From NCBI GenBank assembly GCA_964483185.1, contig CAZACO010000001.1, positions 1-26,575 of the forward strand: a stretch of 26,575 nucleotides of DNA. Reading direction: 5' to 3'. A model generated the notes under the pieces. The model did no database searches. It was given only the letters and a program-made list of their open reading frames with translations, and was not told the DNA's origin. The DNA comes from an uncultured Desulfobacteraceae bacterium. GTDB lineage: Bacteria; Desulfobacterota; DSM-4660; Desulfatiglandales; Desulfatiglandaceae. Shown piece after piece: positions 11,702 to 26,575 of the stretch; the stretch's first letter is position 1; each line of letters opens with the position of its first letter. The position numbers and the translations under genes were made by a program.

Positions 11702-12361
11702 ATGGCAGAAACTGCGATTAACACCTATAAAACGAAGACCGAACTGGTCTACGATTACCTCCGAACGAATATTTTGCAGAAACATTTTAAACCCGGGGAT
11801 AAGATCATCATCCGCGAAATTTCCAAAATGTTAAACCTCAGCGATATCCCGGTGAGGGAGGCCATCAAGAAACTGGAGACCCAGGGGTTGCTTCATGTGG
11901 TTCCCCACACCGGAGCGCGGGTGGCCGAAATCGACCGAAAGGAGATGGAGGAGATTTATATCATTCGCAGCACCCTCGAGGCCCTAGCCACGCAATTAGC
12001 CTGCCCCTATATAAAGTCGGAAGACTTCCAGAGGCTGGAGAAAATATTGGGAAAGTACGAGGATACGTTTCGCGCTGGGAAATATGAGGCTCTAAGTGAA
12101 TTGAATAAAGAATTTCATCTGGAAATCTACAGATGTTCCCCCTACAAGAGCCTCTTCAAAATGATTGTGGAAATATGGGAGCGGTCAAAGATGATCCGCC
12201 ATGCCTTTTCTCTGCCCAGTTCTTTGCGGGAGCAGTCGATGAAAGAACATCGATTGATATTGCAATTGTTGCGAAAGGGGAACGGCGAAGAGGCGGCCGA
12301 ACTCGTGCGGAAGCAGAAAATTGCCTCGTGGAAGGTAATTTCAACGCTCATGGAAGAATGA
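11702..12361 (+). CDS. GntR family transcriptional regulator (wHTH + FCD domain)
   Basis: VYDYLRTNIL…KPGDKI…SDIPVREAIKKLETQGLL…PHTGARV (GntR HTH); FCD-type C-terminus (LNKEFH…EH..I). Confidence 0.95.
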   Translation: MAETAINTYKTKTELVYDYLRTNILQKHFKPGDKIIIREISKMLNLSDIPVREAIKKLETQGLLHVVPHTGARVAEIDRKEMEEIYIIRSTLEALATQLACPYIKSEDFQRLEKILGKYEDTFRAGKYEALSELNKEFHLEIYRCSPYKSLFKMIVEIWERSKMIRHAFSLPSSLREQSMKEHRLILQLLRKGNGEEAAELVRKQKIASWKVISTLMEE

Positions 12362-12486
12362 GGTTCTTTTAAACGGCATACCCGATACGATGGTTTTTCA
12401 ATTTGGTGTGATCAAGGAAGAGGCCCAGAAAAGATTGAGAAAACCATGAATGTCAGTTGCCGAAAATACAAAACAGGAGGTGCATT

Positions 12487-13473
12487 ATGGCAAAGGGAAG
12501 AAATTGGTCAAAAAGTAAATCTTGTTTCGTTTTAGTGGCATTGCTCATGGTACTATTTTACGCCTTTCCAGGGTTCGGAGAGGAATACCCATCCCAGACC
12601 ATCAAAATCATCGTGCCATATCCCCCAGGAGGAGTTACGGATTTAATCAGCCGATCCATGGCAGATACGATGGCCAAAGTGCTGGGGCAGCCGGTAATCA
12701 TCGAGAATAAGCCGGGTGGAGGAACGACTGTGGCTTATTCCCTTGTGGCCAACTCCAAGCCCGATGGGTATACAATCGGACATCTTGCCGTGGGGACTTT
12801 GGTTGGTAATTTTTTGGCTTATGACGTTGCTTACAACCCACTGAAGAGCTTTGACTACATTGGAGAAGTTGGGATCTATGCACAATCCATCATTGTTAAA
12901 TCAGATGCCCCCTGGAAGACGTGGGATGAATTTGTTGACTACTCCAAGAAACATCCCCAGAAGATCCGTATGGGCCTTACTAACCAGGTAAGCACCAATG
13001 CCATCCCTACCAAATGGATTAATCATCGATTGGGAAATCCATGGAAAGAAGTGGCCTTTCGTGGTGACACTCCATGTATTACCGCTCTATTAGGCGGGCA
13101 TATCGATGCTTTTGCGGGGGGAGGCGCCCATAACATATTGGTGAACGACGGCCGAGCAAGAATGCTTCTGGCTTTGACGAACAATCCGATCCCTGGTCAT
13201 CCAAATGTTCCGACCTTCAAGCAGGTATACGGCAAACCCGTAGGCAACTTTGCGGGTTACATGGCTCCGGCGGGACTACCTGCCGACGTCCTCAAAAAAC
13301 TGGAAAAGGCAACGAATGAAGCGACCAAGGCTCCGGAATTCCTCAAAGTGATGGAGAAGATGTCCATGACCCCGCTGTGGCGGAACGGTGAGGAACTGAC
13401 CGAGGAGGTGAAAACCCTGCTCTCAACTCTTGAAACATTTTATAAAGATTTAGGTAAACTGAAAAAGAAGTAA
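12487..13473 (+). CDS. tctC: Tripartite tricarboxylate transporter substrate-binding protein (TctC/Bug family)
   Basis: ATG 12487 follows AGGAGG. Signal peptide, then YPSQTIKIIVPYPPGGVTD, GQPVIIENKPGGG, KPDGYT, ALLGGHID, PNVPTF, APAGLP. Confidence 0.93.
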   Translation: MAKGRNWSKSKSCFVLVALLMVLFYAFPGFGEEYPSQTIKIIVPYPPGGVTDLISRSMADTMAKVLGQPVIIENKPGGGTTVAYSLVANSKPDGYTIGHLAVGTLVGNFLAYDVAYNPLKSFDYIGEVGIYAQSIIVKSDAPWKTWDEFVDYSKKHPQKIRMGLTNQVSTNAIPTKWINHRLGNPWKEVAFRGDTPCITALLGGHIDAFAGGGAHNILVNDGRARMLLALTNNPIPGHPNVPTFKQVYGKPVGNFAGYMAPAGLPADVLKKLEKATNEATKAPEFLKVMEKMSMTPLWRNGEELTEEVKTLLSTLETFYKDLGKLKKK

Positions 13474-13551
13474 AATTTTTGGACCTGTGTGATCAGTTTA
13501 TCGCAGCCTGGAAACAACCGGATTTGAGCGCATGAGTCGTCCGGTCACACA

Positions 13552-13609
13552 CGTGAAAAGTGAAGAATGAAACGTGAAATCTCCTTTACTCATGGAGTTT
13601 CACGTTTCA
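13552..13609. repeat. Intergenic hairpin built from 7-nt units
   Basis: CGTGAAA-AGTGAAG-AATGAAA-CGTGAAA (13552-13579). TGAAACGTGAAA(T)CTCC pairs with GGAGTTTCACGTTTCA (13594-13609) around a 9-nt loop. Confidence 0.8.
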
Positions 13610-13742
13610 GAACCCAGAAGTTCAGCACACGAGGAGGATTTGTTTGGTGCATTGTCGATATCTCAGGTCTAACCGTACAGGTCCAGATTTCTGGTTCATC
13701 CAAACGAATCTTTGACCTCTCCATAGAGAAGAGGAGGGCTAG

Positions 13743-14624
13743 GTGTCCAGGAAATTACCCAGGTTTGAATATTTCCGGCCAGAGAGTTTCCAAGAGGCGA
13801 TGGAAATTTTGAAGAAGCACGAGCACAAGATCCGCCCCCTGGCTGGCGGGACGGATCTGTTCATTGCGATGAAAGAAAAGGGGGCCGCATGGGAAAACGT
13901 TTTGGATTTGAAGGGCATCCCTGACTACGATTACATTCGAGAAGTGGACGGCGGGATCGAGATCGGGGCCCTGGCCACGATCCGTTCCGTGGAAACTTCC
14001 CCCTTGATTAAAGAGAAGATTCCTCTTCTGGCCTCTGCTGCGGGAACGATTGGATCCATCCAAATTCGAAACAGGGCCACCATAGGAGGGAATCTATGCA
14101 ATGCGGCTCCCTCAGCAGATACGGCCCCAGCCCTCCTTTGCCTGAGAGCCGAAGTGGAAATCATCGAGGAAGCGGGAGTAAGAAGGATTCCCCTTGACGA
14201 ATTTTTTGTGGGTCCGGGCAAAACACTACTCCGGGAGACTGCCCTTCTGAAGAAGATTTTTGTTCCCTTTCAACCTTTGAATAGTGCCGGCATTTATTTC
14301 AAAGAAAGTCCGCGCCGGGCCATGGATTTGGCTGTGGCCGGGGTGTCCTGCCTCATGACGTTCGATTCGGCCAAAAAGAAATGCCTTGATTGCCGAATCG
14401 CTTTGGGGGCTGTGGCCCCAACCCCCATGCGGGCGAAGAATGCTGAAAAACTTATGATGAACCAACAGATAACAGAAAAGGAAATCGCCGCAGCAGGAGA
14501 AACGGCCAGTGGAGAATGCAGTCCCATCAGCGATGTAAGGGGGTCTGCACAGTTCCGTCGAGAAATGGTGAGAGTATTTGTTGAAAAAGGTTTGCGTGAG
14601 TTATGGAGTGAGGTAAGGTCTTAA
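13743..14624 (+). CDS. Xanthine dehydrogenase family FAD-binding (medium) subunit, CoxM/CutM-like
   Basis: FEYFRP, LAGGTDL, IRNRATIGGNLCNAAPSAD, FFVGPGKT, ALGAVAPTP, PISDVRGSA. No 4Fe-4S insertion. GTG start after GAGGAGG. Confidence 0.94.
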   Translation: MSRKLPRFEYFRPESFQEAMEILKKHEHKIRPLAGGTDLFIAMKEKGAAWENVLDLKGIPDYDYIREVDGGIEIGALATIRSVETSPLIKEKIPLLASAAGTIGSIQIRNRATIGGNLCNAAPSADTAPALLCLRAEVEIIEEAGVRRIPLDEFFVGPGKTLLRETALLKKIFVPFQPLNSAGIYFKESPRRAMDLAVAGVSCLMTFDSAKKKCLDCRIALGAVAPTPMRAKNAEKLMMNQQITEKEIAAAGETASGECSPISDVRGSAQFRREMVRVFVEKGLRELWSEVRS

Positions 14625-14648: not shown

Positions 14649-15200
14649 ATGAAACATTCTATTAAAATGGTTGTGAATGGGGAAGATTATGAGCTTGTGG
14701 TAAACCCAAATGAACTGCTCATTGATGTCCTGAGGGATCGATTGGATTTGACGGGGACGAAGGAGGGGTGCGGAACAGGGGATTGCGGGGCCTGCACGGT
14801 CCTGGTGGACGGCAAAGCCATCAATTCCTGCCTGACCTTGGCGATCGAGATGAACGACAAGGAGATCTTCACCATAGAAGGGATGGCCCCTGGGGGAAAA
14901 CTGAATCCGATCCAAGAGGCTTTTATCGATGAAGGAGCCGTCCAGTGCGGGTTCTGCACCCCCGGAATGATCCTATCTGCTAAGGCCCTGCTACAGGAAA
15001 AGCGCCTTCCCTCAGAAGACGAGATCAAGAGGGGAATCGCGGGCAATCTCTGCCGATGTACCGGCTATAAGAAAATCATTCAGGCCATTCAAACGGCAAG
15101 CCTGCGTTTGGGAAAAGAGAGCAATGCAACTGCTGGGCAATCCCGGGAAGCATGCCTTCGATCTGCGCCCCAGCAAGGGACCTGCCTTAGTTCGGAGTAA
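14649..15200 (+). CDS. Xanthine dehydrogenase family 2x[2Fe-2S] (small) subunit, CoxS-like
   Basis: GTKEGCGTGDCGACTV…NSCL, QCGFCTPG, GNLCRCTGY. Confidence 0.95.
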   Translation: MKHSIKMVVNGEDYELVVNPNELLIDVLRDRLDLTGTKEGCGTGDCGACTVLVDGKAINSCLTLAIEMNDKEIFTIEGMAPGGKLNPIQEAFIDEGAVQCGFCTPGMILSAKALLQEKRLPSEDEIKRGIAGNLCRCTGYKKIIQAIQTASLRLGKESNATAGQSREACLRSAPQQGTCLSSE

Positions 15201-15205
15201 TTCCA

Positions 15206-17482
15206 ATGAATAATTTTCAATTTATAGGGAAAAGGATACCCGTCATTGATGCCAAGGAGAAGGTAACTGGCGAGGCCAAGTATACAGCCGATCTGAAATT
15301 TCCCCATATGCTTTACGGTAAAATTCTACGGAGCCCCCACCCCCACGCAAGAGTCCTGAATATCGATATCAGCCGCGCACAAAAGATCCCCGGAGTCAAA
15401 GCCATCGTGACCGGAGAACAGATCCCTAAGAAAAAAATAGGCGCCTTTATCGAAGATCAATATATCCTGGCCGTGGATAAAGTACGTTATATCGGAGAAG
15501 AAATCGCGGCGGTAGCGGCCATCGATGAAGAGACAGCAGAGGAAGCCTGTAATCTGATCGAAGTAGACTACGAGGTTCTCCCGGCAGTTTTTGATGTGGA
15601 AAAGGCCATCTTGCCGGATGCTCCGCGGATCCACGAGGAAGCCGTGAACAACATTGCCATGCGGCTAGATATCAATCGGGGAGATGTCAAGACAGGGTTT
15701 GAAGAATCTGATTATATCTTTGAGGAACGCTTTAGCACACCAAGTGTACATCAGGGTTATATGGAGCCCATGGCTGCGATTGCTTCGTTTGATATCCATG
15801 GCAGAATGACCCTGTGGGCTCCGGTTCAACATATCTACTTGGCCCGGGCTCATTTAGCCAAGGCCTTGAGTATGCCGGTGAGCGCCATCCGCGTCATCCA
15901 ACCTAAAGTGGGCGGCGGATTCGGTGGTAAAACTGCTGATCAGATGAGCATCCCGATTTGTTGTGTGCTGGCCAAAGCGACCCAAAAACCTGTGAAGCTT
16001 GTCTTGACCCGAAAGGAGGAGTTTATTTCAGGCAGGCCACGAGTGGCAACCGTTATTTATTTAAAGATGGGTGTAAAAAGCGACGGGACCTTCATGGCCA
16101 AGGAAGCCAGAATTTTTTCGGACAATGGAGCTTATTCAGGGAAAAGTCCCTCCATTATGACGACCACTGCAATCCGCGCTGATGCCCTTTATCAATACAA
16201 GAATGTCAAAGCCGAAGCCAACTTGGTCTATACAAACAAAGTGCCCACAGGAGGCTATCGCGGATTTGGGAATCCCCAGATGGCCTTTGCGGTTGAAAGT
16301 CTTATTGACACCATTGCCCACCAGCTTGAATTGGACCCACTCGAGATTCGTCTGAAGAATGCTGTCGAACCGGGTATGACAACAGTCCACGGATGGAAGA
16401 TCAAGAGCTGCGGCTATCGGGAGTGTATTACAAAAGCGGCGGCCGCCGCAGAATGGAACAGGTATAAAAAAGGGAAGCGTACTGCCAAGATCGGCGTAGG
16501 GATCGCCGGGGCTGCGGATGTAAGCGGGAATAAGCACTTCGGCTATGATGGTTCGAACATTCTCCTAAAAATAACCGAAGATGGAAAAGCCAGGATCATC
16601 TCTGGCGAAGGAGATATCGGCCAGGGTGGAACAACCATATTGACACAGATTGTCGCTGAGGAATTGGGGATTCCTTTGGAAGAGATAGAGGTCTCGGTGG
16701 CCGATACAGATTCAACCCTCTTTTGCTTGGGTGCCTTTGCAAGCCGTTTAACTACGCTGGCTGGCAATGCGGTAAAATTAGCAGCGGCGGATGCTAAAAG
16801 ACAGCTTTTTGATATCGCTGCAAAGGTTCTGGAAGCGAATCAGGAGGATTTATTGTGTAAAAATGGAAAAGTATTTGTGCAGGGGTCTTTAGAAAAAAAG
16901 TTGACGATAGCCGAAGTCATGCAGGCAGGACTTCTGAAATTGGGGAAATTCGGCAATATCAATATCCTGGGCCGAGGTTCTTTTGACCCGGATTCTGAAG
17001 TATGGGACCCTAAGAGCAAATATGGAAATATCGCCAGCACCTATCAATTTGCGGCCCATGTCGCGGTGGTGAAAGTATGCGAGGAAACTGGCCACATACA
17101 GATATTGGATTATGCGGCTGCGCACGATGTTGGCCGGGCCATTAACATGCTGACTTTGGAAGGTCAAATTGAAGGAGGGGTTACCCAGGGAATCGGATAT
17201 GCCCTATGGGAAAATTATTTGTTTAAAGACGGCAAGCTTCTCAATCCTAATTTTACTGACTTCAAAATCCCTCTGGCCCCGGATTTACCACCCATCAAAA
17301 ACATCATTGTCGAACCTGGGGATCCTGTAGGCCCATTTGGGGCGAAAGGCGTGGGTCAGACCCCCTTGGTTCCTGCGGCACCGGCAATTGCCAACGCTAT
17401 CTTTGATGCGGTGGGGGTAAGGATTACCGATTTACCCATCACTTCCGGTAAAATCCTGCAGGCCTTACGGGAAAGAAAATGA
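15206..17482 (+). CDS. Xanthine dehydrogenase family molybdopterin-binding (large) subunit 1
   Basis: KVTGEAKYTAD, LRSPHPHA, HQGYMEP, VGGGFGGK, GYRGFGNPQ, DIGQG, GAFASR, EGQIEGGVTQGIG, GPFGAKGVGQ. Confidence 0.95.
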   Translation: MNNFQFIGKRIPVIDAKEKVTGEAKYTADLKFPHMLYGKILRSPHPHARVLNIDISRAQKIPGVKAIVTGEQIPKKKIGAFIEDQYILAVDKVRYIGEEIAAVAAIDEETAEEACNLIEVDYEVLPAVFDVEKAILPDAPRIHEEAVNNIAMRLDINRGDVKTGFEESDYIFEERFSTPSVHQGYMEPMAAIASFDIHGRMTLWAPVQHIYLARAHLAKALSMPVSAIRVIQPKVGGGFGGKTADQMSIPICCVLAKATQKPVKLVLTRKEEFISGRPRVATVIYLKMGVKSDGTFMAKEARIFSDNGAYSGKSPSIMTTTAIRADALYQYKNVKAEANLVYTNKVPTGGYRGFGNPQMAFAVESLIDTIAHQLELDPLEIRLKNAVEPGMTTVHGWKIKSCGYRECITKAAAAAEWNRYKKGKRTAKIGVGIAGAADVSGNKHFGYDGSNILLKITEDGKARIISGEGDIGQGGTTILTQIVAEELGIPLEEIEVSVADTDSTLFCLGAFASRLTTLAGNAVKLAAADAKRQLFDIAAKVLEANQEDLLCKNGKVFVQGSLEKKLTIAEVMQAGLLKLGKFGNINILGRGSFDPDSEVWDPKSKYGNIASTYQFAAHVAVVKVCEETGHIQILDYAAAHDVGRAINMLTLEGQIEGGVTQGIGYALWENYLFKDGKLLNPNFTDFKIPLAPDLPPIKNIIVEPGDPVGPFGAKGVGQTPLVPAAPAIANAIFDAVGVRITDLPITSGKILQALRERK

Positions 17483-17545
17483 AAAACTAGGATTGGCGTT
17501 CTCCGGTTGCCCGAAAGGGTCAGACAATCTGCTGAGAGATGAGAT

Positions 17546-18001
17546 ATGAAGGAATATGACCTTTACGGTGGTCTGTTCTGGCTGCTCATGGCCATTTTTG
17601 TGAGCGTCATGGGGGTGAAGTTTGGCCTGGGGACCCTCGGATATCCCGGCCCCGGATTTTTCCCCTTTCTGGTGGGTCTAATATTGTTCTGCTTCTCTTT
17701 CGGCATCATCATTATTGCCTTTAAAGAAAAAGCCAAAGGGCCAGGGTTTACGGAATGGCCGTTTTTCGGAAAAAAGGTCTTTGCTACCCTGGCCATTCTA
17801 TTCGCCTACTCTTTTTCCCTTGAATATCTCGGATTCATTATTGGTTCATCTCTCTTAATGTTTTATCTCTTCAAGGTACCCGGGGCCCAAAAGTGGTGGC
17901 TTTCCGCGACCGCCACAGTGGTTACAATTGCCCTGGCGTACTATTTTTTCGTAGTCCTGCTGAAGGCGCAGTTACCGAAAGGGCTCTTGGATATGGGTTA
18001 G
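17546..18001 (+). CDS. tctB: Tripartite tricarboxylate transporter small membrane subunit TctB
   Basis: Four TM helices, GPGFFP motif, LEYLGF, C-terminal L..QLPKG; directly upstream of tctA. Confidence 0.88.
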   Translation: MKEYDLYGGLFWLLMAIFVSVMGVKFGLGTLGYPGPGFFPFLVGLILFCFSFGIIIIAFKEKAKGPGFTEWPFFGKKVFATLAILFAYSFSLEYLGFIIGSSLLMFYLFKVPGAQKWWLSATATVVTIALAYYFFVVLLKAQLPKGLLDMG

Positions 18002-18116
18002 GCGCCGATATAGAGGTGGTCCAATCCCGGATGGCTCATCACTATAGAACCTTGAGAAAATGAAAACCGGTAACTGCCTGAAGTTGCTTGGCATTTACTT
18101 CTTTAGGGATATTAGA

Positions 18117-19655
18117 TTGGATACTTACAGCAGCATCGTTTTAGGATTAGAAATCGGGCTGTTGCCGATGAATTTACTCTTTTGTTTTATAGGGGTACTG
18201 ACTGGAACTCTAGTGGGAGTGCTTCCGGGGGTCGGACCGGTGGCGGCGATGGCCCTGCTTTTGCCCGCTACGTTCCACATAGCCCCGGCGGCTGCTATCA
18301 TCATGCTGGCCGGAATCTATTACGGGTCGATGTACGGCGGATCAACCACCTCCATCTTGGTCAATATCCCCGGGGAAGCAGGTTCCGTGATTACCTGCCT
18401 GGATGGATATCAGATGGCCCGCAAGGGGAGAGCGGGCCCCGCCTTAGGCATATCCGCCTTTGGTTCTTTCATCGCCGGAACGTTCGGGGTGTTGATCCTG
18501 ATGCTAATCGCCAATCCGATGGCGGAATTTGTATTGAAATTCGGCCCTCCTGAATATTCTGCCGTCATGGTCCTTGGCTTGAGCTTATTGATTTATCTTG
18601 CTCAGGGATCCAGAATTAAGGCGCTGGTGATGGCCTGTTTTGGTTTGATTCTCAGCTTTATCGGCATTGACGTTTTGACCGGGCAGCATCGGTTGAATTT
18701 CGGATCGATGAACTTCGCGGAAGGCGTCGGGTTGGTCCCCGTGATTATGGGAGTCTTCGGCATCTCCGAAGTATTGATCAACATGGAACAGATGACGAAG
18801 CAGGAGATCTATGAGACGAAAATCCGCGGGCTTTTCCCATCATTGAACGACTGGGCGAGGTCGAAATGGCCGATCATTCGTGGTTCGGTCCTGGGTTTCA
18901 TTCTGGGGGTTCTCCCCGGAGGCGGGCCAACCCTGGCGGCCTTTGCGAGTTACGCCCTGGAAAAAAAGATATCCAAGCACCCGGAAACATTTGGAACCGG
19001 TGCCATTGAGGGAGTCGCAGGACCCGAGTCTGCCAACAATTCCGCCACGTCAGGAGGTTTTATTCCCTTGTTTCTCATCGGGATTCCCACCAATGGGATT
19101 CTGGCAATGCTTTTCAGCGCCCTTCTGATTCACGGCCTTCAGCCTGGACCGTTATTGCTGCAGCAGAACCCCGAGGTCTTTTGGGGAGTAGTGATGAGCA
19201 TGTATATCGGGAACGTGATGCTTCTCGTATTAAACCTGCCTTTGATCGGAGTCTGGATAAAAATATTGAAGATACCCTATCCGATTCTATTTCCCCTGAT
19301 CATATTCTTTTGCTTAATCGGCTCCTACAGCATTAACAACAACGCATTGGACGTAATCGTCATGTTGATTTTTGGCTTGATCGGTTATGTCATGAGAAAG
19401 TTCGGTTACGAGGGTGCCCCGCTGATTCTGGCCCTTATTCTGGGTCCGATGCTGGAGCGGTCCTTCATTCAATCCCTGAACATGTCTGGGGGGACCTATC
19501 AGATATTCTTCGGGAGCGTCATTTCCGCCGTAACGATGATCATTGCATTGGGCGTGATCTTTTCCTCGTTAATCCCGCTTTTACGAAAGAGAAGTCCAGT
19601 AACCGAGAGTTTTTCGAAGAAATGCTCAGAGGACCGTGTTACTGTTGAGGACTAG
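18117..19655 (+). CDS. tctA: Tripartite tricarboxylate transporter large membrane subunit TctA
   Basis: GTLVGVLPGVG, YYGSMYGGS, NIPGE, DGYQMARKG, GPESANN, GIPT, GLQPGP. The likely start is TTG 18117 (MDTYSS…); the ORF track uses 18060. Confidence 0.95.
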   Translation: MDTYSSIVLGLEIGLLPMNLLFCFIGVLTGTLVGVLPGVGPVAAMALLLPATFHIAPAAAIIMLAGIYYGSMYGGSTTSILVNIPGEAGSVITCLDGYQMARKGRAGPALGISAFGSFIAGTFGVLILMLIANPMAEFVLKFGPPEYSAVMVLGLSLLIYLAQGSRIKALVMACFGLILSFIGIDVLTGQHRLNFGSMNFAEGVGLVPVIMGVFGISEVLINMEQMTKQEIYETKIRGLFPSLNDWARSKWPIIRGSVLGFILGVLPGGGPTLAAFASYALEKKISKHPETFGTGAIEGVAGPESANNSATSGGFIPLFLIGIPTNGILAMLFSALLIHGLQPGPLLLQQNPEVFWGVVMSMYIGNVMLLVLNLPLIGVWIKILKIPYPILFPLIIFFCLIGSYSINNNALDVIVMLIFGLIGYVMRKFGYEGAPLILALILGPMLERSFIQSLNMSGGTYQIFFGSVISAVTMIIALGVIFSSLIPLLRKRSPVTESFSKKCSEDRVTVED

Positions 19656-19666
19656 CTTAGGAGAGG

Positions 19667-20461
19667 ATGAACTCTATGATAATCTTGCGATACCAGTGGA
19701 AGGGGATGATCAGGTGGGGCATTCTGGAAGGGGAAGAGAAGATCTTCGCGTTGGAAGGAGATCTTTACGGCGATTTTGGAAAAGGCAAAGAAGTCTGCCG
19801 TTTGGCTGATGTCAAGCTCCTCGCCCCTGCAGAACCGACCATCATGGTAGCCTGCGGCATGAACTATCGGGCACGGTTCCTAGAAGGCGGGTTGAAGGAG
19901 GAGCCGCAGGAGCCAATCCTTTTCTTTAAGCCTGCAACAGCGGTGATCGGTTCTTTTGAAGACGTGGTTTTTCCGGCGATTGCGCGAGAAATGCGCTATG
20001 AGGGTGAGCTATGCGTGGTCATGAAGAGGCATGCCAGAAATGTATCGGAGAAAGATGCAATGCGTTATGTATTAGGATACACCTGCGGGAATGAGTTGGG
20101 GGCAATGGATCTAATGAAGAAGGACCGTTGGATGACAAGGGCCAAAGGCTTCGACACCTCCGGCCCCCTGGGTCCTTTTCTTGTCACGGATCTCAATCCT
20201 CATGGCCTGTCGATCAAGAGCCGGCTCAATGGCCAAACCAGACAAGACAGCCATACGAGCCTCATGATTTTTCGGGTGGAAAAGCTGATCAGTTATATTT
20301 CGGAGTTTATGACCCTTCGCCCCGGAGACGTCATCTGGACAGGTACCCCTGCTGGGAACAGCAATGTGAAGGTGGGGGATCTCATGGAAGTCGAGATCGA
20401 AGGAATCGGAATCCTTAGCAACAGGGTTGTTGCGTCGAGTAATTCTGGAAAAAGAGCGTGA
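19667..20461 (+). CDS. Fumarylacetoacetate hydrolase (FAH) family protein
   Basis: EPILFFKP, YEGEL, GYTCGNE, RAKGFDTSGPLGP, TLRPGDVIWTGTP, GDLMEVEIEGIGILSN. Confidence 0.92.
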   Translation: MNSMIILRYQWKGMIRWGILEGEEKIFALEGDLYGDFGKGKEVCRLADVKLLAPAEPTIMVACGMNYRARFLEGGLKEEPQEPILFFKPATAVIGSFEDVVFPAIAREMRYEGELCVVMKRHARNVSEKDAMRYVLGYTCGNELGAMDLMKKDRWMTRAKGFDTSGPLGPFLVTDLNPHGLSIKSRLNGQTRQDSHTSLMIFRVEKLISYISEFMTLRPGDVIWTGTPAGNSNVKVGDLMEVEIEGIGILSNRVVASSNSGKRA

Positions 20462-20520
20462 GGAAGAAAACTTGGTGATAAAAGGAAATGCAGTGCACAA
20501 GAAATACAAGGAGTATTTAC

Positions 20521-21309
20521 ATGGAGCAAATTACGGGAAATGTATTCTATGAGAATAGATTTCGGGGATGCAATCTTGGCCTTGTGGTCACCGATGATGG
20601 TGTTGTCCTGATCGATACCCCTGTGGATTTTGAAGTTGCCCAAGGGTGGATGGGGGAGATTGCCAAACGAGGGGAAGTTCGCTGTATCATCAATACGGAA
20701 CATCACATGGACCACTGGTTGTGCAACGGGCTCTTTGCGGGGGACATCATCGCCCATGAAGCAACCCGGGAGACCATGCTGACCATGGATCTCGATTTCA
20801 TCGCCAAGCGAACACAGATCCTCTATCTTGAGCCCCACCAAATCCCGGAGGGGTATCAACTGAAGTATCCAAACATGACCTACCACGGGAGGATGACACT
20901 CTATTTTGGGAAACACACCTTTCATCTCATTCATACTCCTGGCCACACTCCCGGAGTCACGGCCGTTTATATTCCTGAAGAGAGGGTAGTCTTCACGGGT
21001 GATAACGTCGTCGGCGGGACCCGTACAGCCTACCACGATGCCCTGCCCGAAAAATGGATCGAGTCCCTCAAGCGGCTGCAAGACCTGGATATCCAAACAG
21101 TGCTTCCCGGCCATGGAAAGGTGTGCGATAAAGCATATTTGAAGCAGCAGGCGGAGATCGTACACGGATGGTGGCAAGGAACACAAAAAGCCAAGACCGA
21201 AGGCATCCCTTTTGACGATGAGGCGAAACGCAAAATCGATCCCTTTTTCGATTTTCGAGACACCGGGATCAGACCTACGGTGACTTTGACCGCCACATCG
21301 GCCCGATAA
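20521..21309 (+). CDS. Metallo-beta-lactamase-fold hydrolase (cyclase-like group)
   Basis: ATG 20521 follows AAGGAG. NLGLV…GVVLIDTP, INTEHHMDH, HTPGHT, FTGDN, PGHG. Confidence 0.9.
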   Translation: MEQITGNVFYENRFRGCNLGLVVTDDGVVLIDTPVDFEVAQGWMGEIAKRGEVRCIINTEHHMDHWLCNGLFAGDIIAHEATRETMLTMDLDFIAKRTQILYLEPHQIPEGYQLKYPNMTYHGRMTLYFGKHTFHLIHTPGHTPGVTAVYIPEERVVFTGDNVVGGTRTAYHDALPEKWIESLKRLQDLDIQTVLPGHGKVCDKAYLKQQAEIVHGWWQGTQKAKTEGIPFDDEAKRKIDPFFDFRDTGIRPTVTLTATSAR

Positions 21310-21353
21310 GGTCAGCCAATGATCATCAACCAGGCAAAGGAGGAGAATTGGAG

Positions 21354-22583
21354 ATGTCACAAGGTAAAGATGAAAGCCCATGGGTAGCGCCGGGGAAGTG
21401 GTCTGTCAGTCCCTACTGCTACGAGCCTGAGGTAAGAACTGATTGGCGGCTGCCCAAGGAGATTGCTATTCATGATGTTACTCTCAGAGATGGGGAGCAG
21501 ACGCCGGGGGTTGTCTTCCGAAAGGATGAAAAATTGAAAATAGCTCATGCCCTGGAGGATGCCGGCGTGCAGCGCATCGAGGGAGGCATGATTTCCACCT
21601 CCGAGGAAGATTTCGATGCAATCCGGGCCATGGTACGGGAAATCAAAAGATCCGAGGTGGCCTGCTTCTGCAGGGCACGACGCGACGACCTAGAACGGTC
21701 TCTCAAGGCCGGGGTACACCGGGTCATCATGGAGATAACCGCCCAGGATCCGATCATTAGAAAGATTTGGGGGAGCCGGGGGAAGGCGGTAGAAGAGATC
21801 ATCAAATTGGCTCAATTTGCTAAGACCAACGGTCTCAAGGTTACTTTCTTCCTCATGGAAAGCAGCCGAAGCCCACTGGATCTCCTGCGGGATTTCATTG
21901 TCCCGGTTGTTCGGGAGGGGAAGGTAGACCATGTCACGATCGTGGATACACGCGGATCAGCTTTCCCCCCCGCTTTCGCCTGGATAGTCTCCCAGGTCAA
22001 GCAATGGGTGCAGATTCCGGTTGAGGTCCATTGCCATAACAACTGGGGGCTGGCTACGGCTGCGACTCTGGCTGGAATCACGGCCGGGGCCGAGGTGGTT
22101 CACACCTGCATTAACGGGATGGGTGGCAACGCATCGCTGGATGAAATCGTTATGGGCGCCGAAGCTCTCTTGGGGGTGAAGACCGGCGTGAAGACGGAAA
22201 TGTTCCAGGAGATGTCCGCGAGGGTCAGAGAGATGTCCGGGGCCGACTGGTACAAGCCTTTTGTTGGGTCCCTGACTTCCCAGGTAGAGGTGGGCATCGC
22301 CACCCGGCAGATGTGGGATCGACGCAATGAAAAGGGGTATGGGCGGGCAGAACCGCTCAATTATGAGGTTGTTGGGGGGAAGGCGGTCGAGTTGGCGCTA
22401 GGGAAAAAGAGTGGAAGGTATTCGATGATGCTGAAGGCATGGGAGCACGGCCTGCCTCAACCTTCTGAAGAGCAGGCAACCGAAATGGTGAGTAGGGTGA
22501 AAAAGATTTCGGAAGCCGAAAAACGTCTGGTCACGGACGAGGAATTCAAGAAGATATACACCCAGGTCTGCGATGCTGGATAG
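21354..22583 (+). CDS. DRE-TIM metallolyase (HMGL-like; homocitrate/isopropylmalate synthase-like catalytic domain, no regulatory domain)
   Basis: IHDVTLRDGEQTPG, EVHCHNNWGLA.A..LAG..AGA, GMGGNA, LGKKSG. The start is ATG 21354, or TTG 21348. Confidence 0.88.
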   Translation: MSQGKDESPWVAPGKWSVSPYCYEPEVRTDWRLPKEIAIHDVTLRDGEQTPGVVFRKDEKLKIAHALEDAGVQRIEGGMISTSEEDFDAIRAMVREIKRSEVACFCRARRDDLERSLKAGVHRVIMEITAQDPIIRKIWGSRGKAVEEIIKLAQFAKTNGLKVTFFLMESSRSPLDLLRDFIVPVVREGKVDHVTIVDTRGSAFPPAFAWIVSQVKQWVQIPVEVHCHNNWGLATAATLAGITAGAEVVHTCINGMGGNASLDEIVMGAEALLGVKTGVKTEMFQEMSARVREMSGADWYKPFVGSLTSQVEVGIATRQMWDRRNEKGYGRAEPLNYEVVGGKAVELALGKKSGRYSMMLKAWEHGLPQPSEEQATEMVSRVKKISEAEKRLVTDEEFKKIYTQVCDAG

Positions 22584-22713: not shown

Positions 22714-23295
22714 ATGGCGCCTGTGAGGAAATCCGAGGAGAGGAAAAAGTTGCGGAATCATTCCGTGGCCGAGAAGAAAGATAATCTGCCCAGGTTGGTT
22801 CGGCGCCTTTCAGTAAACGTGAACGGAAAGCAGGTTGAACTGGATGTCGATTCCCGCATGACCCTGGCTGAGTTCTTGCGCGAAAAGCTGGGTTTGACCG
22901 GCACGAAAGTGGGCTGCAACCGTGCCGAGTGCGGGAGCTGCACGGTCCTGCTTGACGGGAATCCCGTATATTCCTGCACTACATTGGCCGTGGAAGCGGC
23001 TGGCAGGAAAGTTGTGACCATTGAAGGGTTGGCAGTCAATGGTCAACTCCATCCGATTCAAGAAGCCTTCATTGAGCTGGACGCTCTCCAGTGCGGATTC
23101 TGCACACCCGGGATGATTCTGTCCCTTAAAGCCTTTCTGGAAAACAAGTTCCGGCCTACAGACGAAGAGATTAGAATTGCTATCGACGGAAACCTTTGTC
23201 GCTGCGGCTGCTATCCCAATATCATCCATGCAGCCAAAACCGCAGCCGAAAAAATGACACCTATCCGGGGTGGGGGAGAGGGAAAGGATGGATAG
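22714..23295 (+). CDS. Xanthine dehydrogenase family 2x[2Fe-2S] subunit (PaoA/YagT-like)
   Basis: GTKVGCNRAECGSCTV…YSCT, QCGFCTPG, GNLCRCGCYPNI. Charged N-terminal extension without a hydrophobic signal. Confidence 0.94.
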   Translation: MAPVRKSEERKKLRNHSVAEKKDNLPRLVRRLSVNVNGKQVELDVDSRMTLAEFLREKLGLTGTKVGCNRAECGSCTVLLDGNPVYSCTTLAVEAAGRKVVTIEGLAVNGQLHPIQEAFIELDALQCGFCTPGMILSLKAFLENKFRPTDEEIRIAIDGNLCRCGCYPNIIHAAKTAAEKMTPIRGGGEGKDG

Positions 23296-25624
23296 GAACA
23301 AACTGCTCGTGGTAGGGACTCCCCCTCCCCCTTTGAGCAGAAAGTATACTATCGTCGGCAGGTCGCTGAACCGCAGAGACGGGCTGGAGAAGGTTACTGG
23401 ACGTGCTGAGTATGCGGGTGATATAAGGCTGCCTGATATGCTCTATGGAAAGATTCTCCGTTGTCCCCATCCGCGGGCCAGGATTTTGAAAATTGATACT
23501 CGCAAGGCGGAAAGTCTGCCGGGCATCCACGCTGTATTAACGACAGAGAACACCAAGGGTTGGCGCACCTACTGGTACGAAATTCCCCAGATAGCCTTTC
23601 CGGAGTGCCTCACCTACGAGGGTCAGGAAGTAGCCGCAGTTGCGGCCGAGGACGTGGATATCGCGCAAAGGGCCTTGGAACTCATCGAGGTAGAGTATGA
23701 GATCCTAACCCCGATGCTGAATGCGGAGGAAGTGCTGAATAGTCCACCCATCCCCTGCATTGCCGATGAAGAGTATCCCGGAAGGGAGCTTTTCGACCGA
23801 AAAAAAATGGTCGTAAAGCGAGGAGATGTGAAGAAAGGCTTTGCCGAAGCCGACGTCATCATTGAAGAGACCTATACAACCCAGACTTCCTACCATGGGA
23901 CGATCCAGACCCGGGCCTGTGTTGCCCATTGGGATGGGAAAAACCTTACCATTTGGGATGCCACCCAGGGGGTATGGAACTCAAAAGGAGCGCTGGCCAG
24001 GGCCTTCGACCTCAATCCGGAGAACGTCCGGGTAATTGTAAAGTACTTAGGAGGAGGGTTCGGCTCCAAGGCCTGGTCGCAGAGGATCTCTTTTTATGCG
24101 GCCAAACTTTCACTCATGACGGCGAGACCTGTCCGAATAGAGCGGACAAGGAGAGAGGAATTCTTGGCCCATCCTCACCGATGGGATATTAAATTCTATC
24201 TGAAGATGGGGGCCAGGAGAGATGGAACCCTGACCGCCATCTCCCAAAGAGCCATTGTAAATATCGGCGCGGCCGCGGCTGAAACCAATTACTATGCCAT
24301 CAGCATCAACTGGCATGCCTCCAATCTTTATGCCTGCCCGAACGTGGATCTCGAACAAACCGGGGTGTTCACCAACCTGCAACTCACAGGGCCGACCCGT
24401 GCTCCCTTCAATATGGCGGCGATCTTTGTAATTGAATCGCACATAGACAAATTGGCCCGTCGGTTGGGCATAGACCCGTTGCAATTGAGACTGAAGAACT
24501 ACACCGACTTCGGCAAAACGCATCTCGCTCCAGCCCTTTATGGTCAGGAGGTTAACATTCGATACGGGAGCAAAAAGCTGGACGAATGCATGAAGTGGGT
24601 GACGGAAGCGGTCGGGTGGGAGAGACGAAAAGATCTAAACAATCCTCCGGAAAGCCAAAAACGACGTGGAATTGGTATGGCGGCTTTTATCGCCAACCAG
24701 GGAAGCGGCCGAACGCCGAATACCGCCCATGCGGATGTGATCATCAAAAATGACGGAACCATCCATTTGTTGATCGGTGTGGTGGATATCGGCGCCGGAC
24801 AGCAAACGGTCTTTTCCATGATCGCGGCCGAGGAACTTGGGGTTAATTTCGAAGATGTCATTCCGATGGTCGGAGATACGAAGGATACGAAATATGCTCC
24901 TTCCTCCCACTCTTCACGTGTAACCGCCGAGATGGGCCCGGCCGTATTGATGGCGGCTGCGGAAGCCAGAGACCGACTCTTTGCCCTCGCCGGTAAAATG
25001 CTGGGAGTGAAACCGAATCTGCTCGAATCTAGATACGGGGAAATCTATCTGAAATCAGATAATTCCAAGTCTATCCCCTTTAAGGATGTGTGCAGAAAAA
25101 TAGATCCGAACCGGCCCATTAAAGGGAGTGGAAGCAGAGCGACCAATCCTGATGATCCCATGTTTGCCACATTCGGTGCCCACGCTGCAGAAGTAGAAGT
25201 GGATATGGGGACAGGGGAGGTGACCCTCTTGAGGATGGCCGCTGCACATGATTTCGGAAAGGCGATCAACCCAAAGCTTTGTGTATCACAAATCTACGGC
25301 GGTATAGAATTCGGCGTAGGATACGCCCTGATGGAAGAGGGTATCTTCGACCGGAGAACGGGAAAGATGCTCAATGCCAACCTGCATCATTACCGCATGC
25401 CCACTTCCCTCGATTTCCCTCCTGTAGAGGTCTTTCTGCTTGAAAGTGAGAATCCATGGTTCGCTTATTCTGCAAAGGGGGGGGCGGAAGTCACAAACAC
25501 CCCTACCCCGGCAGCCATAGGAAATGCCATCGCGAACGCACTGGGGGAAATCCGACTTAATGATTTGCCTCTGACAACAGATAAGATCATTCAGGCGATC
25601 CGTAACAAAAACAAAGAGGGTTAG
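23288..25624 (+). CDS. Xanthine dehydrogenase family molybdopterin-binding subunit 2 (PaoC/YagR-like)
   Basis: KVTGRAEYAGD, LGGGFGSK, TRAP (RAPG-type loop), DIGAGQ, SHSSRVT, QIYGG…GVG, AKGGAE. The start is ATG 23288, overlapping the stop of the small subunit. Confidence 0.94.
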   Translation: MDRNKLLVVGTPPPPLSRKYTIVGRSLNRRDGLEKVTGRAEYAGDIRLPDMLYGKILRCPHPRARILKIDTRKAESLPGIHAVLTTENTKGWRTYWYEIPQIAFPECLTYEGQEVAAVAAEDVDIAQRALELIEVEYEILTPMLNAEEVLNSPPIPCIADEEYPGRELFDRKKMVVKRGDVKKGFAEADVIIEETYTTQTSYHGTIQTRACVAHWDGKNLTIWDATQGVWNSKGALARAFDLNPENVRVIVKYLGGGFGSKAWSQRISFYAAKLSLMTARPVRIERTRREEFLAHPHRWDIKFYLKMGARRDGTLTAISQRAIVNIGAAAAETNYYAISINWHASNLYACPNVDLEQTGVFTNLQLTGPTRAPFNMAAIFVIESHIDKLARRLGIDPLQLRLKNYTDFGKTHLAPALYGQEVNIRYGSKKLDECMKWVTEAVGWERRKDLNNPPESQKRRGIGMAAFIANQGSGRTPNTAHADVIIKNDGTIHLLIGVVDIGAGQQTVFSMIAAEELGVNFEDVIPMVGDTKDTKYAPSSHSSRVTAEMGPAVLMAAAEARDRLFALAGKMLGVKPNLLESRYGEIYLKSDNSKSIPFKDVCRKIDPNRPIKGSGSRATNPDDPMFATFGAHAAEVEVDMGTGEVTLLRMAAAHDFGKAINPKLCVSQIYGGIEFGVGYALMEEGIFDRRTGKMLNANLHHYRMPTSLDFPPVEVFLLESENPWFAYSAKGGAEVTNTPTPAAIGNAIANALGEIRLNDLPLTTDKIIQAIRNKNKEG

Positions 25625-25628
25625 GCCC

Positions 25629-26575
25629 TTGCTTTACGAAATCCCTATTTTGAAACATATCGATGCGCAGAATGTCCAGGAGGCGATTTTCTGGCTACAC
25701 GATTATCTGCCGAGAGCAAAAGTGATAGCTGGGGGTACGGATCTGTTAAGTCTGATAAAAGACCGGGTGGAGGTCCCCGAACTTCTGGTCAACATTAAAC
25801 CGATTCCCCAGGCGAACCGGATGGATTATGACGAAAAACAAGGCTTACGCATAGGCGCTGCAGTTTCCTTGAAACAGCTGCAGTCGTGTAAGGTGATCCA
25901 AAAAAAATATCCTCTTTTAGCGGTCACCGCTCAGCAAGTCGGTACGACGCAGATTCGAAATATGGGCACAATCGGAGGGAATATCCTTCAGAGACCTCAG
26001 TGCATGTACTTTAGAAATCCTGATTTTTTTTGCCGCAAGAAGGGGAAAACCAGATGTTACGCCGTCACCGGGGAACACCGGGACTATTATGCCATTTTTG
26101 ACCATGGAAAATGCATCATGGCCCATCCCTCGGACATGGCTCCGGCTCTTGTTGCCCTAAGGGCCAAAGCCGTCGTGGTCAACAGGGAGGGAGAAAGGCA
26201 GGTCCCTTTAGAGGATCTGTTCGTGGGGCCGAATCACTTACAGGAGACGGTCCTGCAACCGGATGAATTGCTGTTAGGCTTCCATGTGCCGAACCCTGAC
26301 GGGCTGGCTTTTCAATCCTTCCTCAAACATCGAATCAGACGATCATTCGATTTTGCTCTAGCGAGCGTCGCCGTGGCTGCGAACCTATCAGACGGAATCT
26401 GTCTGGATATCAGGGTCGTCCTTGGGGGCGTCGCCCCTTTTCCGTACCTGAATTCAGATCTTTCGAAAATGCTTCAGGGAAAAAGGCTCACCCGGGAAAT
26501 CGCTCAGGAAACCGCAGAGGCATCAGTCAAAGGGGCCCGTCCGCTTCCTATGAACCGCTATAAGGTTGAACTGAC
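25629..26575 (+). CDS. Xanthine dehydrogenase family FAD subunit with [4Fe-4S] insertion (PaoB/YagS-like), 3' end outside the window; missed by the ORF track
   Basis: TTG 25629 after AAGAGGG; the frame is open to the window end. IAGGTDL, QIRNMGTIGGNILQRPQCMYFRNPDFFCRKKGKTRCYAVTGEHRDYYAIFDHGKCIMAHPSD (4 Cys), SFDFALAS, LGGVAP, ARPLPMNRYKVEL. Confidence 0.94.
   Translation, partial: MLYEIPILKHIDAQNVQEAIFWLHDYLPRAKVIAGGTDLLSLIKDRVEVPELLVNIKPIPQANRMDYDEKQGLRIGAAVSLKQLQSCKVIQKKYPLLAVTAQQVGTTQIRNMGTIGGNILQRPQCMYFRNPDFFCRKKGKTRCYAVTGEHRDYYAIFDHGKCIMAHPSDMAPALVALRAKAVVVNREGERQVPLEDLFVGPNHLQETVLQPDELLLGFHVPNPDGLAFQSFLKHRIRRSFDFALASVAVAANLSDGICLDIRVVLGGVAPFPYLNSDLSKMLQGKRLTREIAQETAEASVKGARPLPMNRYKVEL

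Follow-up and report, generated by a model that had tools for sequence, protein, structure and literature searches.

The stretch of DNA analysed here (hereafter the window) comprises 26,575 nucleotides of contig CAZACO010000001.1 of an uncultured Desulfobacteraceae bacterium (assembly GCA_964483185.1) and encodes MoL1, a 758-residue large subunit (P0001) predicted to bind molybdenum (Mo) with molybdopterin cytosine dinucleotide. In MoL1, glutamine (Gln718) takes the place of the catalytic glutamate of the xanthine oxidase family. This glutamine is beyond chance, being fixed in a monophyletic clade of proteins in which both glutamine codons are used: the change from glutamate to glutamine (E-to-Q) occurred once, in the ancestor of the clade, and has been kept by selection since. 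The enzyme is hosted by a small clade of Desulfobacteraceae-type bacteria of sediment and peat. We are highly confident that the glutamine is inherited and selected in an enzyme whose cofactor-binding residues are intact. Its mode of action probably differs from that of the textbook members of the family. The best explanation as a whole, which we hold with moderate confidence, is that MoL1 belongs to a functional Mo enzyme with altered proton handling and a selected glutamine ancestral to its clade.

Identity and inheritance of the glutamine

Residue 718 is the last of the motif translated from GCG AAA GGC GTG GGT CAG (A713-K-G-V-G-Q718; Table 1). In phmmer alignments with solved structures, it falls on the glutamate of 4-hydroxybenzoyl-CoA reductase (4-HBCR; 1rm6_A, AKEASE, Glu726 in alignment numbering), of Mycobacterium smegmatis CoxL (8uem, AKGIGE) and of 6-hydroxypseudooxynicotine dehydrogenase (7dqx, AKGLGE); thus the position is that of the family's catalytic glutamate, the general base next to Mo-OH, which is Glu1261 in bovine xanthine oxidoreductase (XOR). 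All nine clade members, the window's protein among them, have glutamine there. A sequence-only reading of the window had reported both this AKGVGQ motif with its CAG codon and a second large subunit that retains glutamate (AKGGAE, Glu740, GAA at 25487-25489), and the window sequence and its translation bear out both observations. The end coordinate given for the motif in that reading, 17365, lies two codons further on and so covers T719 and P720 as well.

A homologue search of 5.8 billion proteins yielded 120 homologues, which were then aligned. The eight closest clusters (P0005-P0012, 71-81% identity) all read G-A-K-G-[VI]-G-Q; their 24 member sequences were assembled in JGI, ENA, Logan and NCBI data sets and represent at least five independent assemblies of metagenomes or metagenome-assembled genomes (MAGs). 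The next ten clusters (P0013-P0022, 65-72% identity) retain glutamate, as do all 100 other homologues. The glutamine codon is CAG in the window and CAA at five other loci (L013, which belongs to a Desulfobacteraceae MAG, L018, L019, L020 and L022), and two loci of the glutamate-bearing sister clade (L021 and L024) have GAG. In a maximum-likelihood tree the ten glutamine sequences are monophyletic (SH-aLRT 100) and sister to the glutamate clade, the window's protein branches close to the base of the glutamine clade, and one single E-to-Q change suffices to explain it. Pairwise ratios of nonsynonymous to synonymous divergence (dN/dS, Nei-Gojobori) within the glutamine clade are 0.08-0.10 at synonymous divergences (dS) of 1.2-1.9, in the same range as those of neighbouring genes (0.06-0.29); hence the glutamine has been retained through saturating synonymous divergence.

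The sequence-only reading had offered a recent inactivating point change, or an error, as one account of the glutamine, and had proposed to check close homologues and reads. Only one base relative to the sister clade would have to differ for a change from GAG to CAG, whether through faulty sequencing or assembly or through a private mutation of very recent date, and the window belongs to a fragmented MAG (753 contigs, 90% complete); nevertheless, we consider such an origin practically negligible, because every close homologue from independent assemblies has glutamine, mostly as CAA, and assembled sequences from two runs concur at the site. The homologue comparison, together with monophyly by a single change and the low dN/dS, refutes this account. 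At the read level, Logan contigs from two salt-marsh runs span position 17357 and show only CAG (X1, 17299-17482, with 0 differences from the window; X2, 17177-17441, with its sole difference at 17311), but these are assembled contigs rather than raw reads, their depth is only about 3, and the assembly itself may derive from one of the two runs.

To place the substitution within its family, 1.84 billion cluster representatives were searched with phmmer, and the nearest 150 clusters (50% identity) of the 4-HBCR-like radiation were retained. Glutamate is present in 136 of these 150 representatives and absent from 14 (P0132, P0150, P0202, P0216, P0225, P0227, P0229, P0239, P0261, P0265, P0267, P0268, P0269 and P0271), which have instead glutamine (three), methionine (three), aspartate (three), asparagine (two), alanine, arginine or isoleucine (one each). 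On a tree of 157 sequences, composed of the representatives and the glutamine clade, loss of glutamate takes at least 13 changes, and glutamine has at least four origins. Replacement of glutamate by glutamine is therefore recurrent in this radiation, the glutamine clade being one instance, and the topology nests that clade, which is small and of separate and recent origin, among glutamate-bearing relatives. The description of this glutamate as near-invariant, made in the sequence-only reading, holds for characterised enzymes but is overstated for environmental sequences. In some of the proteins without glutamate, such as P0239 and P0268, the R-G-F-G loop is missing as well, whereas the glutamine clade keeps the Mo-site motifs.

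The relatives within the glutamine clade all come from metagenomes and one Desulfobacteraceae MAG. A set of 40 related genomes from the same family or order yielded no orthologue above 44% identity, and the best family hits in related genomes have glutamate in 11 of 11 cases. A degenerate DNA pattern for F-G-A-K-G-x-G-Q matched the window's genome only, among 401 genomes of the phylum, which is a rough guide to rarity, as the search had no denominator for the glutamate version. No publication on a natural clade with glutamine for glutamate was found in the literature, with incomplete coverage of subscription papers.

Enzyme architecture, pocket residues and function

MoL1 contains the Pfam domains Ald_Xan_dh_C (PF01315), MoCoBD_1 (PF02738) and MoCoBD_2 (PF20256), all far over their cut-offs, and so has the three-domain layout of the family: an a/b-hammerhead and two Mo-cofactor-binding domains. 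Its AlphaFold 2 model (predicted local distance difference test score 91.7) matches family structures in Foldseek with template modelling (TM) scores of 0.83-0.94, the highest being to 1rm6. Apart from the glutamate, the Mo-site motifs are all present: Q208 (the family's glutamine partner of Mo=O), GGGFGGK (G236-K242), R352-G-F-G355 and G509-A-F-A-S-R514. The two adjacent genes (13743-14624 and 14649-15200) supply the partner subunits expected of the family, with flavin adenine dinucleotide (FAD) and two [2Fe-2S] clusters. The best NCBIfam match of MoL1 is TIGR03194, the 4-HBCR alpha subunit equivalog, at 666.9 bits against a cut-off of 994.55, and its FAD subunit (FAD1) scores 126 bits against TIGR03195, with a cut-off of 404.55, and has no Cys-rich insertion corresponding to the [4Fe-4S] loop of the 4-HBCR beta subunit. 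Judged by its predicted fold and cofactor motifs, MoL1 is a homologue of the xanthine oxidase family; judged by the residue at the catalytic position, it is not a canonical hydroxylase. It is probably the Mo subunit of a complete FAD / 2x[2Fe-2S] / Mo-pterin enzyme, predicted to be functional. The 90%-complete MAG yielded no XdhC/CoxI-type gene for Mo-cofactor insertion or sulfuration (PF02625), which does not by itself show that the gene is absent. The MAG carries seven matches to the Mo-cofactor-binding domain PF02738.

The residues that changed together with residue 718 were sought by comparison with 110 glutamate-bearing homologues, across which conservation reaches 95% or more at 189 alignment positions. 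The glutamine clade retains 176 of the 189, and among the residues kept are Q208, GGGFGGK, R352-G-F-G, R514, E669 and K714. The changed positions are listed in Table 1; at less conserved sites, the clade has the additional signatures R216H, D391M, P505L, L668W and T720C. Position 720 (17363-17365) is proline in the window's protein and cysteine in eight of the nine clade members, which rules out Cys720 as an essential new ligand.

Several of the changed residues can be placed, by inference, in relation to the Mo site. Gly350 immediately precedes the Y-R-G-F loop, which lines the site; positions 511-513 lie within the G-x-[FY]-x-S-R segment; and residue 438 is aligned with His443 of 4-HBCR. For the urolithin dehydroxylase UcdO, a docking model has been published with a pocket that includes F458, A371 and Y536/G537 (PMC13753352). 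UcdO numbering equals that of 4-HBCR plus 15 at three anchors (A371/A356, Y536/Y521 and E741/E726), and by this constant offset the listed UcdO residues are the counterparts of positions 438, 350 and 511/512. Asp438 therefore probably occupies a position in the substrate pocket, and the co-fixed changes probably line or border the Mo pocket, while the remaining residues that hold the cofactor are nearly all unchanged. As a lead only, position 438 may also correspond to Phe1009 of bovine XOR.

We propose that the enzyme would still perform Mo-centred redox chemistry on a carboxylate imported by the surrounding tripartite tricarboxylate transporter (TTT), but that residue 718 would no longer deprotonate Mo-OH. 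The amide of Gln718 may form a hydrogen bond with the Mo-bound oxygen or with an anionic group of the carboxylate substrate, rather than repelling it, and the substrate itself, or Asp438 as a residue gained by the clade, may take over the proton. What is formed would then be processed further by the HpcE-like enzyme, the hydrolase and the lyase of the cluster and by its second, glutamate-bearing Mo enzyme. This specific model of proton handling is tentative, and is supported by the rarity of an acidic residue at position 438, found in only 3 of the 150 cluster representatives, all of which have Glu718, and by the restriction of the D438 and Q718 pair, among the same representatives, to the glutamine clade.

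Several observations weigh against the model, or against the functional reading on which it builds. Aspartate or glutamate at position 438 also occurs in glutamate-bearing enzymes (CoxL and Pno, in addition to the three representatives), so that Asp438 need not be a substitute base, and other, independent glutamine lineages have histidine or phenylalanine there. The placement of residue 438 in the pocket follows a chain of alignments to a published docking model rather than coordinates. The window's own protein does not carry two of the clade signatures, having Ser513 for asparagine and Pro720 for cysteine. Finally, variants of Rhodobacter capsulatus xanthine dehydrogenase in which E730 was replaced by glutamine or alanine are reportedly inactive.

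Inactivity of this kind would suit a pseudo-enzyme without catalysis at the Mo site, retained for a partner role in structure, electron transfer or ligand sensing. Canonical enzymes engineered to lack the general base lose their activity, and its loss recurs in this radiation, where some lineages have lost Mo-site motifs as well (for example, P0239 and P0268 lack R-G-F-G); the glutamate is described as essential in reviews (PMC10420851, PMC13653126). In the glutamine clade, however, practically all motifs for cofactor binding are retained, as are dedicated FeS and FAD subunits, dN/dS is as low as that of flanking genes, and the fixed changes cluster at pocket positions, which indicates retuning rather than decay; we regard a pseudo-enzyme as quite improbable. 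Somewhat less improbable, though still unlikely, is a reductase (deoxygenase or dehydroxylase), in which an oxygen of the substrate would bind Mo, no deprotonation of Mo-OH would be needed, and Gln718 would position or polarise the bound oxygen. In its favour, the reductive 4-HBCR supplies both the nearest solved structure and the best-matching NCBIfam model, the host is an anaerobe with Rnf, and the same cluster contains a second Mo enzyme with the four-Cys FAD subunit typical of 4-HBCR and PaoB. Yet both characterised reductive members keep the glutamate (Glu726 of 4-HBCR and E741 of UcdO, the latter termed essential; PMC13753352), the FAD subunit of MoL1 is without the [4Fe-4S] loop through which low-potential electrons enter 4-HBCR, and the cluster has no CoA ligase. 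Reduction, which the sequence-only reading had given as an example, thus finds no specific support, whereas its broader suggestion of a different reaction or mechanism stands as the remaining alternative, supported indirectly by purifying selection, intact cofactor motifs, co-fixed pocket changes and a clade-specific neighbourhood. The glutamine replacement is probably of functional importance.

Gene neighbourhood

MoL1 is encoded within a cluster of transporter and enzyme genes, all on the forward strand (Table 1). The FAH-family protein (19667-20461) has its best PDB match in 1gtt (E 1.9e-60) and most resembles the C-terminal half of HpaG/HpcE. HpaG/HpcE is a decarboxylase and isomerase acting on unsaturated oxo-tricarboxylates of ring meta-cleavage, and the likeness hints at the kind of intermediate that is processed by the cluster. 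In the second Mo enzyme, the large subunit is encoded at 23270-25624 and the FAD subunit (FAD2, 25629-26573) has an insertion of about 45 residues with four cysteines (QRPQC...FFC...TRC...HGKC), which resembles the [4Fe-4S] loop of HcrB and PaoB. Neither a CoA ligase nor genes of the benzoyl-CoA pathway were found in the 26.6-kb window or the syntenic locus L013, so that no aryl-CoA context is evident there. The host is an anaerobe with Rnf; among its named relatives, an uncultured Desulfobacteraceae MAG is the nearest, and near-identical DNA is present in salt-marsh metagenomes.

Table 1. Features of the window and residues that distinguish the glutamine clade
Feature	Coordinates	Strand	Basis or distribution
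GntR/FCD regulator	11702-12361	+	Upstream of enzyme genes; region syntenic in L013, L020
TctC solute-binding protein	12457-13473	+	Upstream of enzyme genes; region syntenic in L013, L020
FAD1, FAD-binding medium subunit, 293 aa, without four-Cys insertion	13743-14624	+	Pfam FAD_binding_5 and CO_deh_flav_C
FeS1, small subunit with two [2Fe-2S]	14649-15200	+	Fer2 and Fer2_2; CGTGDCGACTV...C, CGFCTPG and CRCTGY present
MoL1, large subunit (P0001), 758 aa, glutamine-clade member	15206-17482	+	Pfam, NCBIfam, AlphaFold 2
AKGVGQ motif	17342-17359	+	Family consensus AKG[LVI]GE
Gln718 codon CAG, family catalytic-Glu position	17357-17359	+	Alignment to 1rm6, 8uem, 7dqx; Glu in 110/110 homologues, Gln in 9/9 clade members
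Position 438, Asp codon GAT	16517-16519	+	His in 109/110 homologues, Asp in 9/9 clade members
Position 350, Gly in TGGYRGFGNPQ (family TGA[YF]RGFGNPQ)	16253-16255	+	Ala in 105/110, Gly in 9/9
Position 648, Met in window	17147-17149	+	Pro of I-N-P in 107/110; M/R/G/K, Pro lost in 9/9
Position 513	16742-16744		Family Ser; Asn in 8/9, window keeps Ser
Position 610			Family Ser; Ala in 7/9
Position 211			Phe in 94/100 non-sister homologues (below the 95% set); Tyr in 9/9
TctB and TctA membrane parts of TTT	17546-19655	+	Directly 3' of MoL1; syntenic in L013, L018, L020, L022
HpcE/HpaG-like FAH-family enzyme, MBL-fold hydrolase, HMGL-like (DRE-TIM) enzyme	19667-22583	+	Profile and structure-sequence matches
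Second Mo enzyme: 2Fe-2S subunit, large subunit, FAD subunit (off window end)	22714-26573	+	Co-occurs with glutamine-clade enzyme in L013, L020

The same 13 genes occur in identical order at L013. At L020 and L022 the order is TctC-FAD-FeS-MoL1-TctB-TctA, after which come an Amidohydro_2 protein and the FAH enzyme; the second Mo enzyme is encoded upstream in divergent orientation. Just 3' of the cluster in this lineage, at L022:5943-9329, lies a gene for a protein of 1128 residues that consists almost entirely of HEAT/PBS-lyase repeats. The glutamate-bearing sister clade (L021 and L024) is likewise found near TTT genes, but its other neighbours include tungsten-type aldehyde:ferredoxin oxidoreductase (AFOR), Ldh_2 and a class II aldolase, and within 10 kb it has neither an FAH enzyme nor a second Mo enzyme. 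This neighbourhood, with several sets of TTT transporter genes, was noted at L021:14234-16468 and L024:8158-8829. The sister-clade locus is another uncharacterised anaerobic carboxylate cluster, and since the neighbourhoods of the two clades differ, the E-to-Q change coincides with a change of pathway.

Comparison of the window with L013 indicates that MoL1 has a history of its own. The other cluster genes all differ by a dS of 0.22-0.35 (about 90% nucleotide identity), whereas MoL1 (L013:8641-10944) differs by a dS of 1.87 (about 70-75% nucleotide identity) along a divergent stretch at window positions 15260-17660; a second such stretch, 13460-14360, involves the FAD subunit, the first two thirds of which, counted from the N terminus, have a dS of 0.78. 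This disparity indicates that the allele of the Mo subunit was swapped by recombination between lineages of the glutamine clade, with glutamine in both alleles. Faster evolution of MoL1 by relaxed constraint was considered and ruled out: the low identity to L013 stems from dS, as expected of allele replacement, and dN/dS is not raised.

Significance and comparison with known systems

A natural glutamine clade under strong purifying selection, with few retuned pocket residues, provides a defined system in which to probe the real role of the glutamate, and the sister clade, at 65-72% identity, offers a clean comparison for experiments. It is possible, if somewhat doubtful, that the clade represents a mechanistically distinct subclass, in which Mo-centred oxygen transfer would proceed without a general-base glutamate by way of a relocated Asp438 or an anionic group of the substrate. 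If so, it would be one of several natural 'experiments' (at least four origins of glutamine) indicating that the glutamate is dispensable for some substrates. The clade contradicts the textbook notion of an essential residue, and automatic annotation as '4-hydroxybenzoyl-CoA reductase alpha subunit' or 'xanthine dehydrogenase' is probably wrong for it and for the roughly one tenth of related clusters that lack the glutamate. The enzyme also marks an uncharacterised cluster for anaerobic carboxylate degradation in relatives of sulfate reducers from marsh and peat.

Among characterised enzymes, MoL1 most resembles the 4-HBCR of Thauera aromatica (HcrA of HcrCAB; PDB 1RM6/1SB3; TIGR03194), which is its best hit by sequence (E 4.7e-139) and by fold (TM 0.94, 37% identity). 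The two have in common a three-domain Mo subunit, separate 2Fe-2S and FAD subunits and most Mo-site motifs. Unlike MoL1, however, HcrA keeps the glutamate, and the partner FAD subunit of MoL1 is without the [4Fe-4S] insertion; the MoL1 genes are arranged in the order FAD-FeS-Mo inside a TTT transporter operon, and the window shows neither a CoA ligase nor genes of the benzoyl-CoA pathway close to them.

The uncharacterised sister clade (P0013-P0022; L021 and L024) is closer still, with three subunits and adjoining TTT genes. It differs in retaining Glu718 (GAG), His438, Ala350, Pro648 and Ser513, and in having the tungsten AFOR, class II aldolase and Ldh_2 where the glutamine clade has an FAH enzyme and a second Mo enzyme. 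Three clusters of the same radiation (P0202, P0227 and P0267) share with MoL1 the replacement of glutamate by glutamine at the same position, but these lineages are of independent origin, with histidine or phenylalanine at position 438 and other variants of the motif.

The canonical Mo hydroxylases (bovine XOR, CoxL, quinoline 2-oxidoreductase, PaoC and nicotinate dehydrogenase) have the same fold and cofactor set as MoL1 and share with it the conserved Gln208 (MoL1 numbering), GGGFGGK and R-G-F-G. All of them have the general-base glutamate, where the glutamine clade has glutamine, and reviews up to 2026 describe the glutamate next to Mo-OH as conserved and essential in the xanthine oxidase family (PMC10420851, PMC13653126), as has also been said of E741 in UcdO (PMC13753352).

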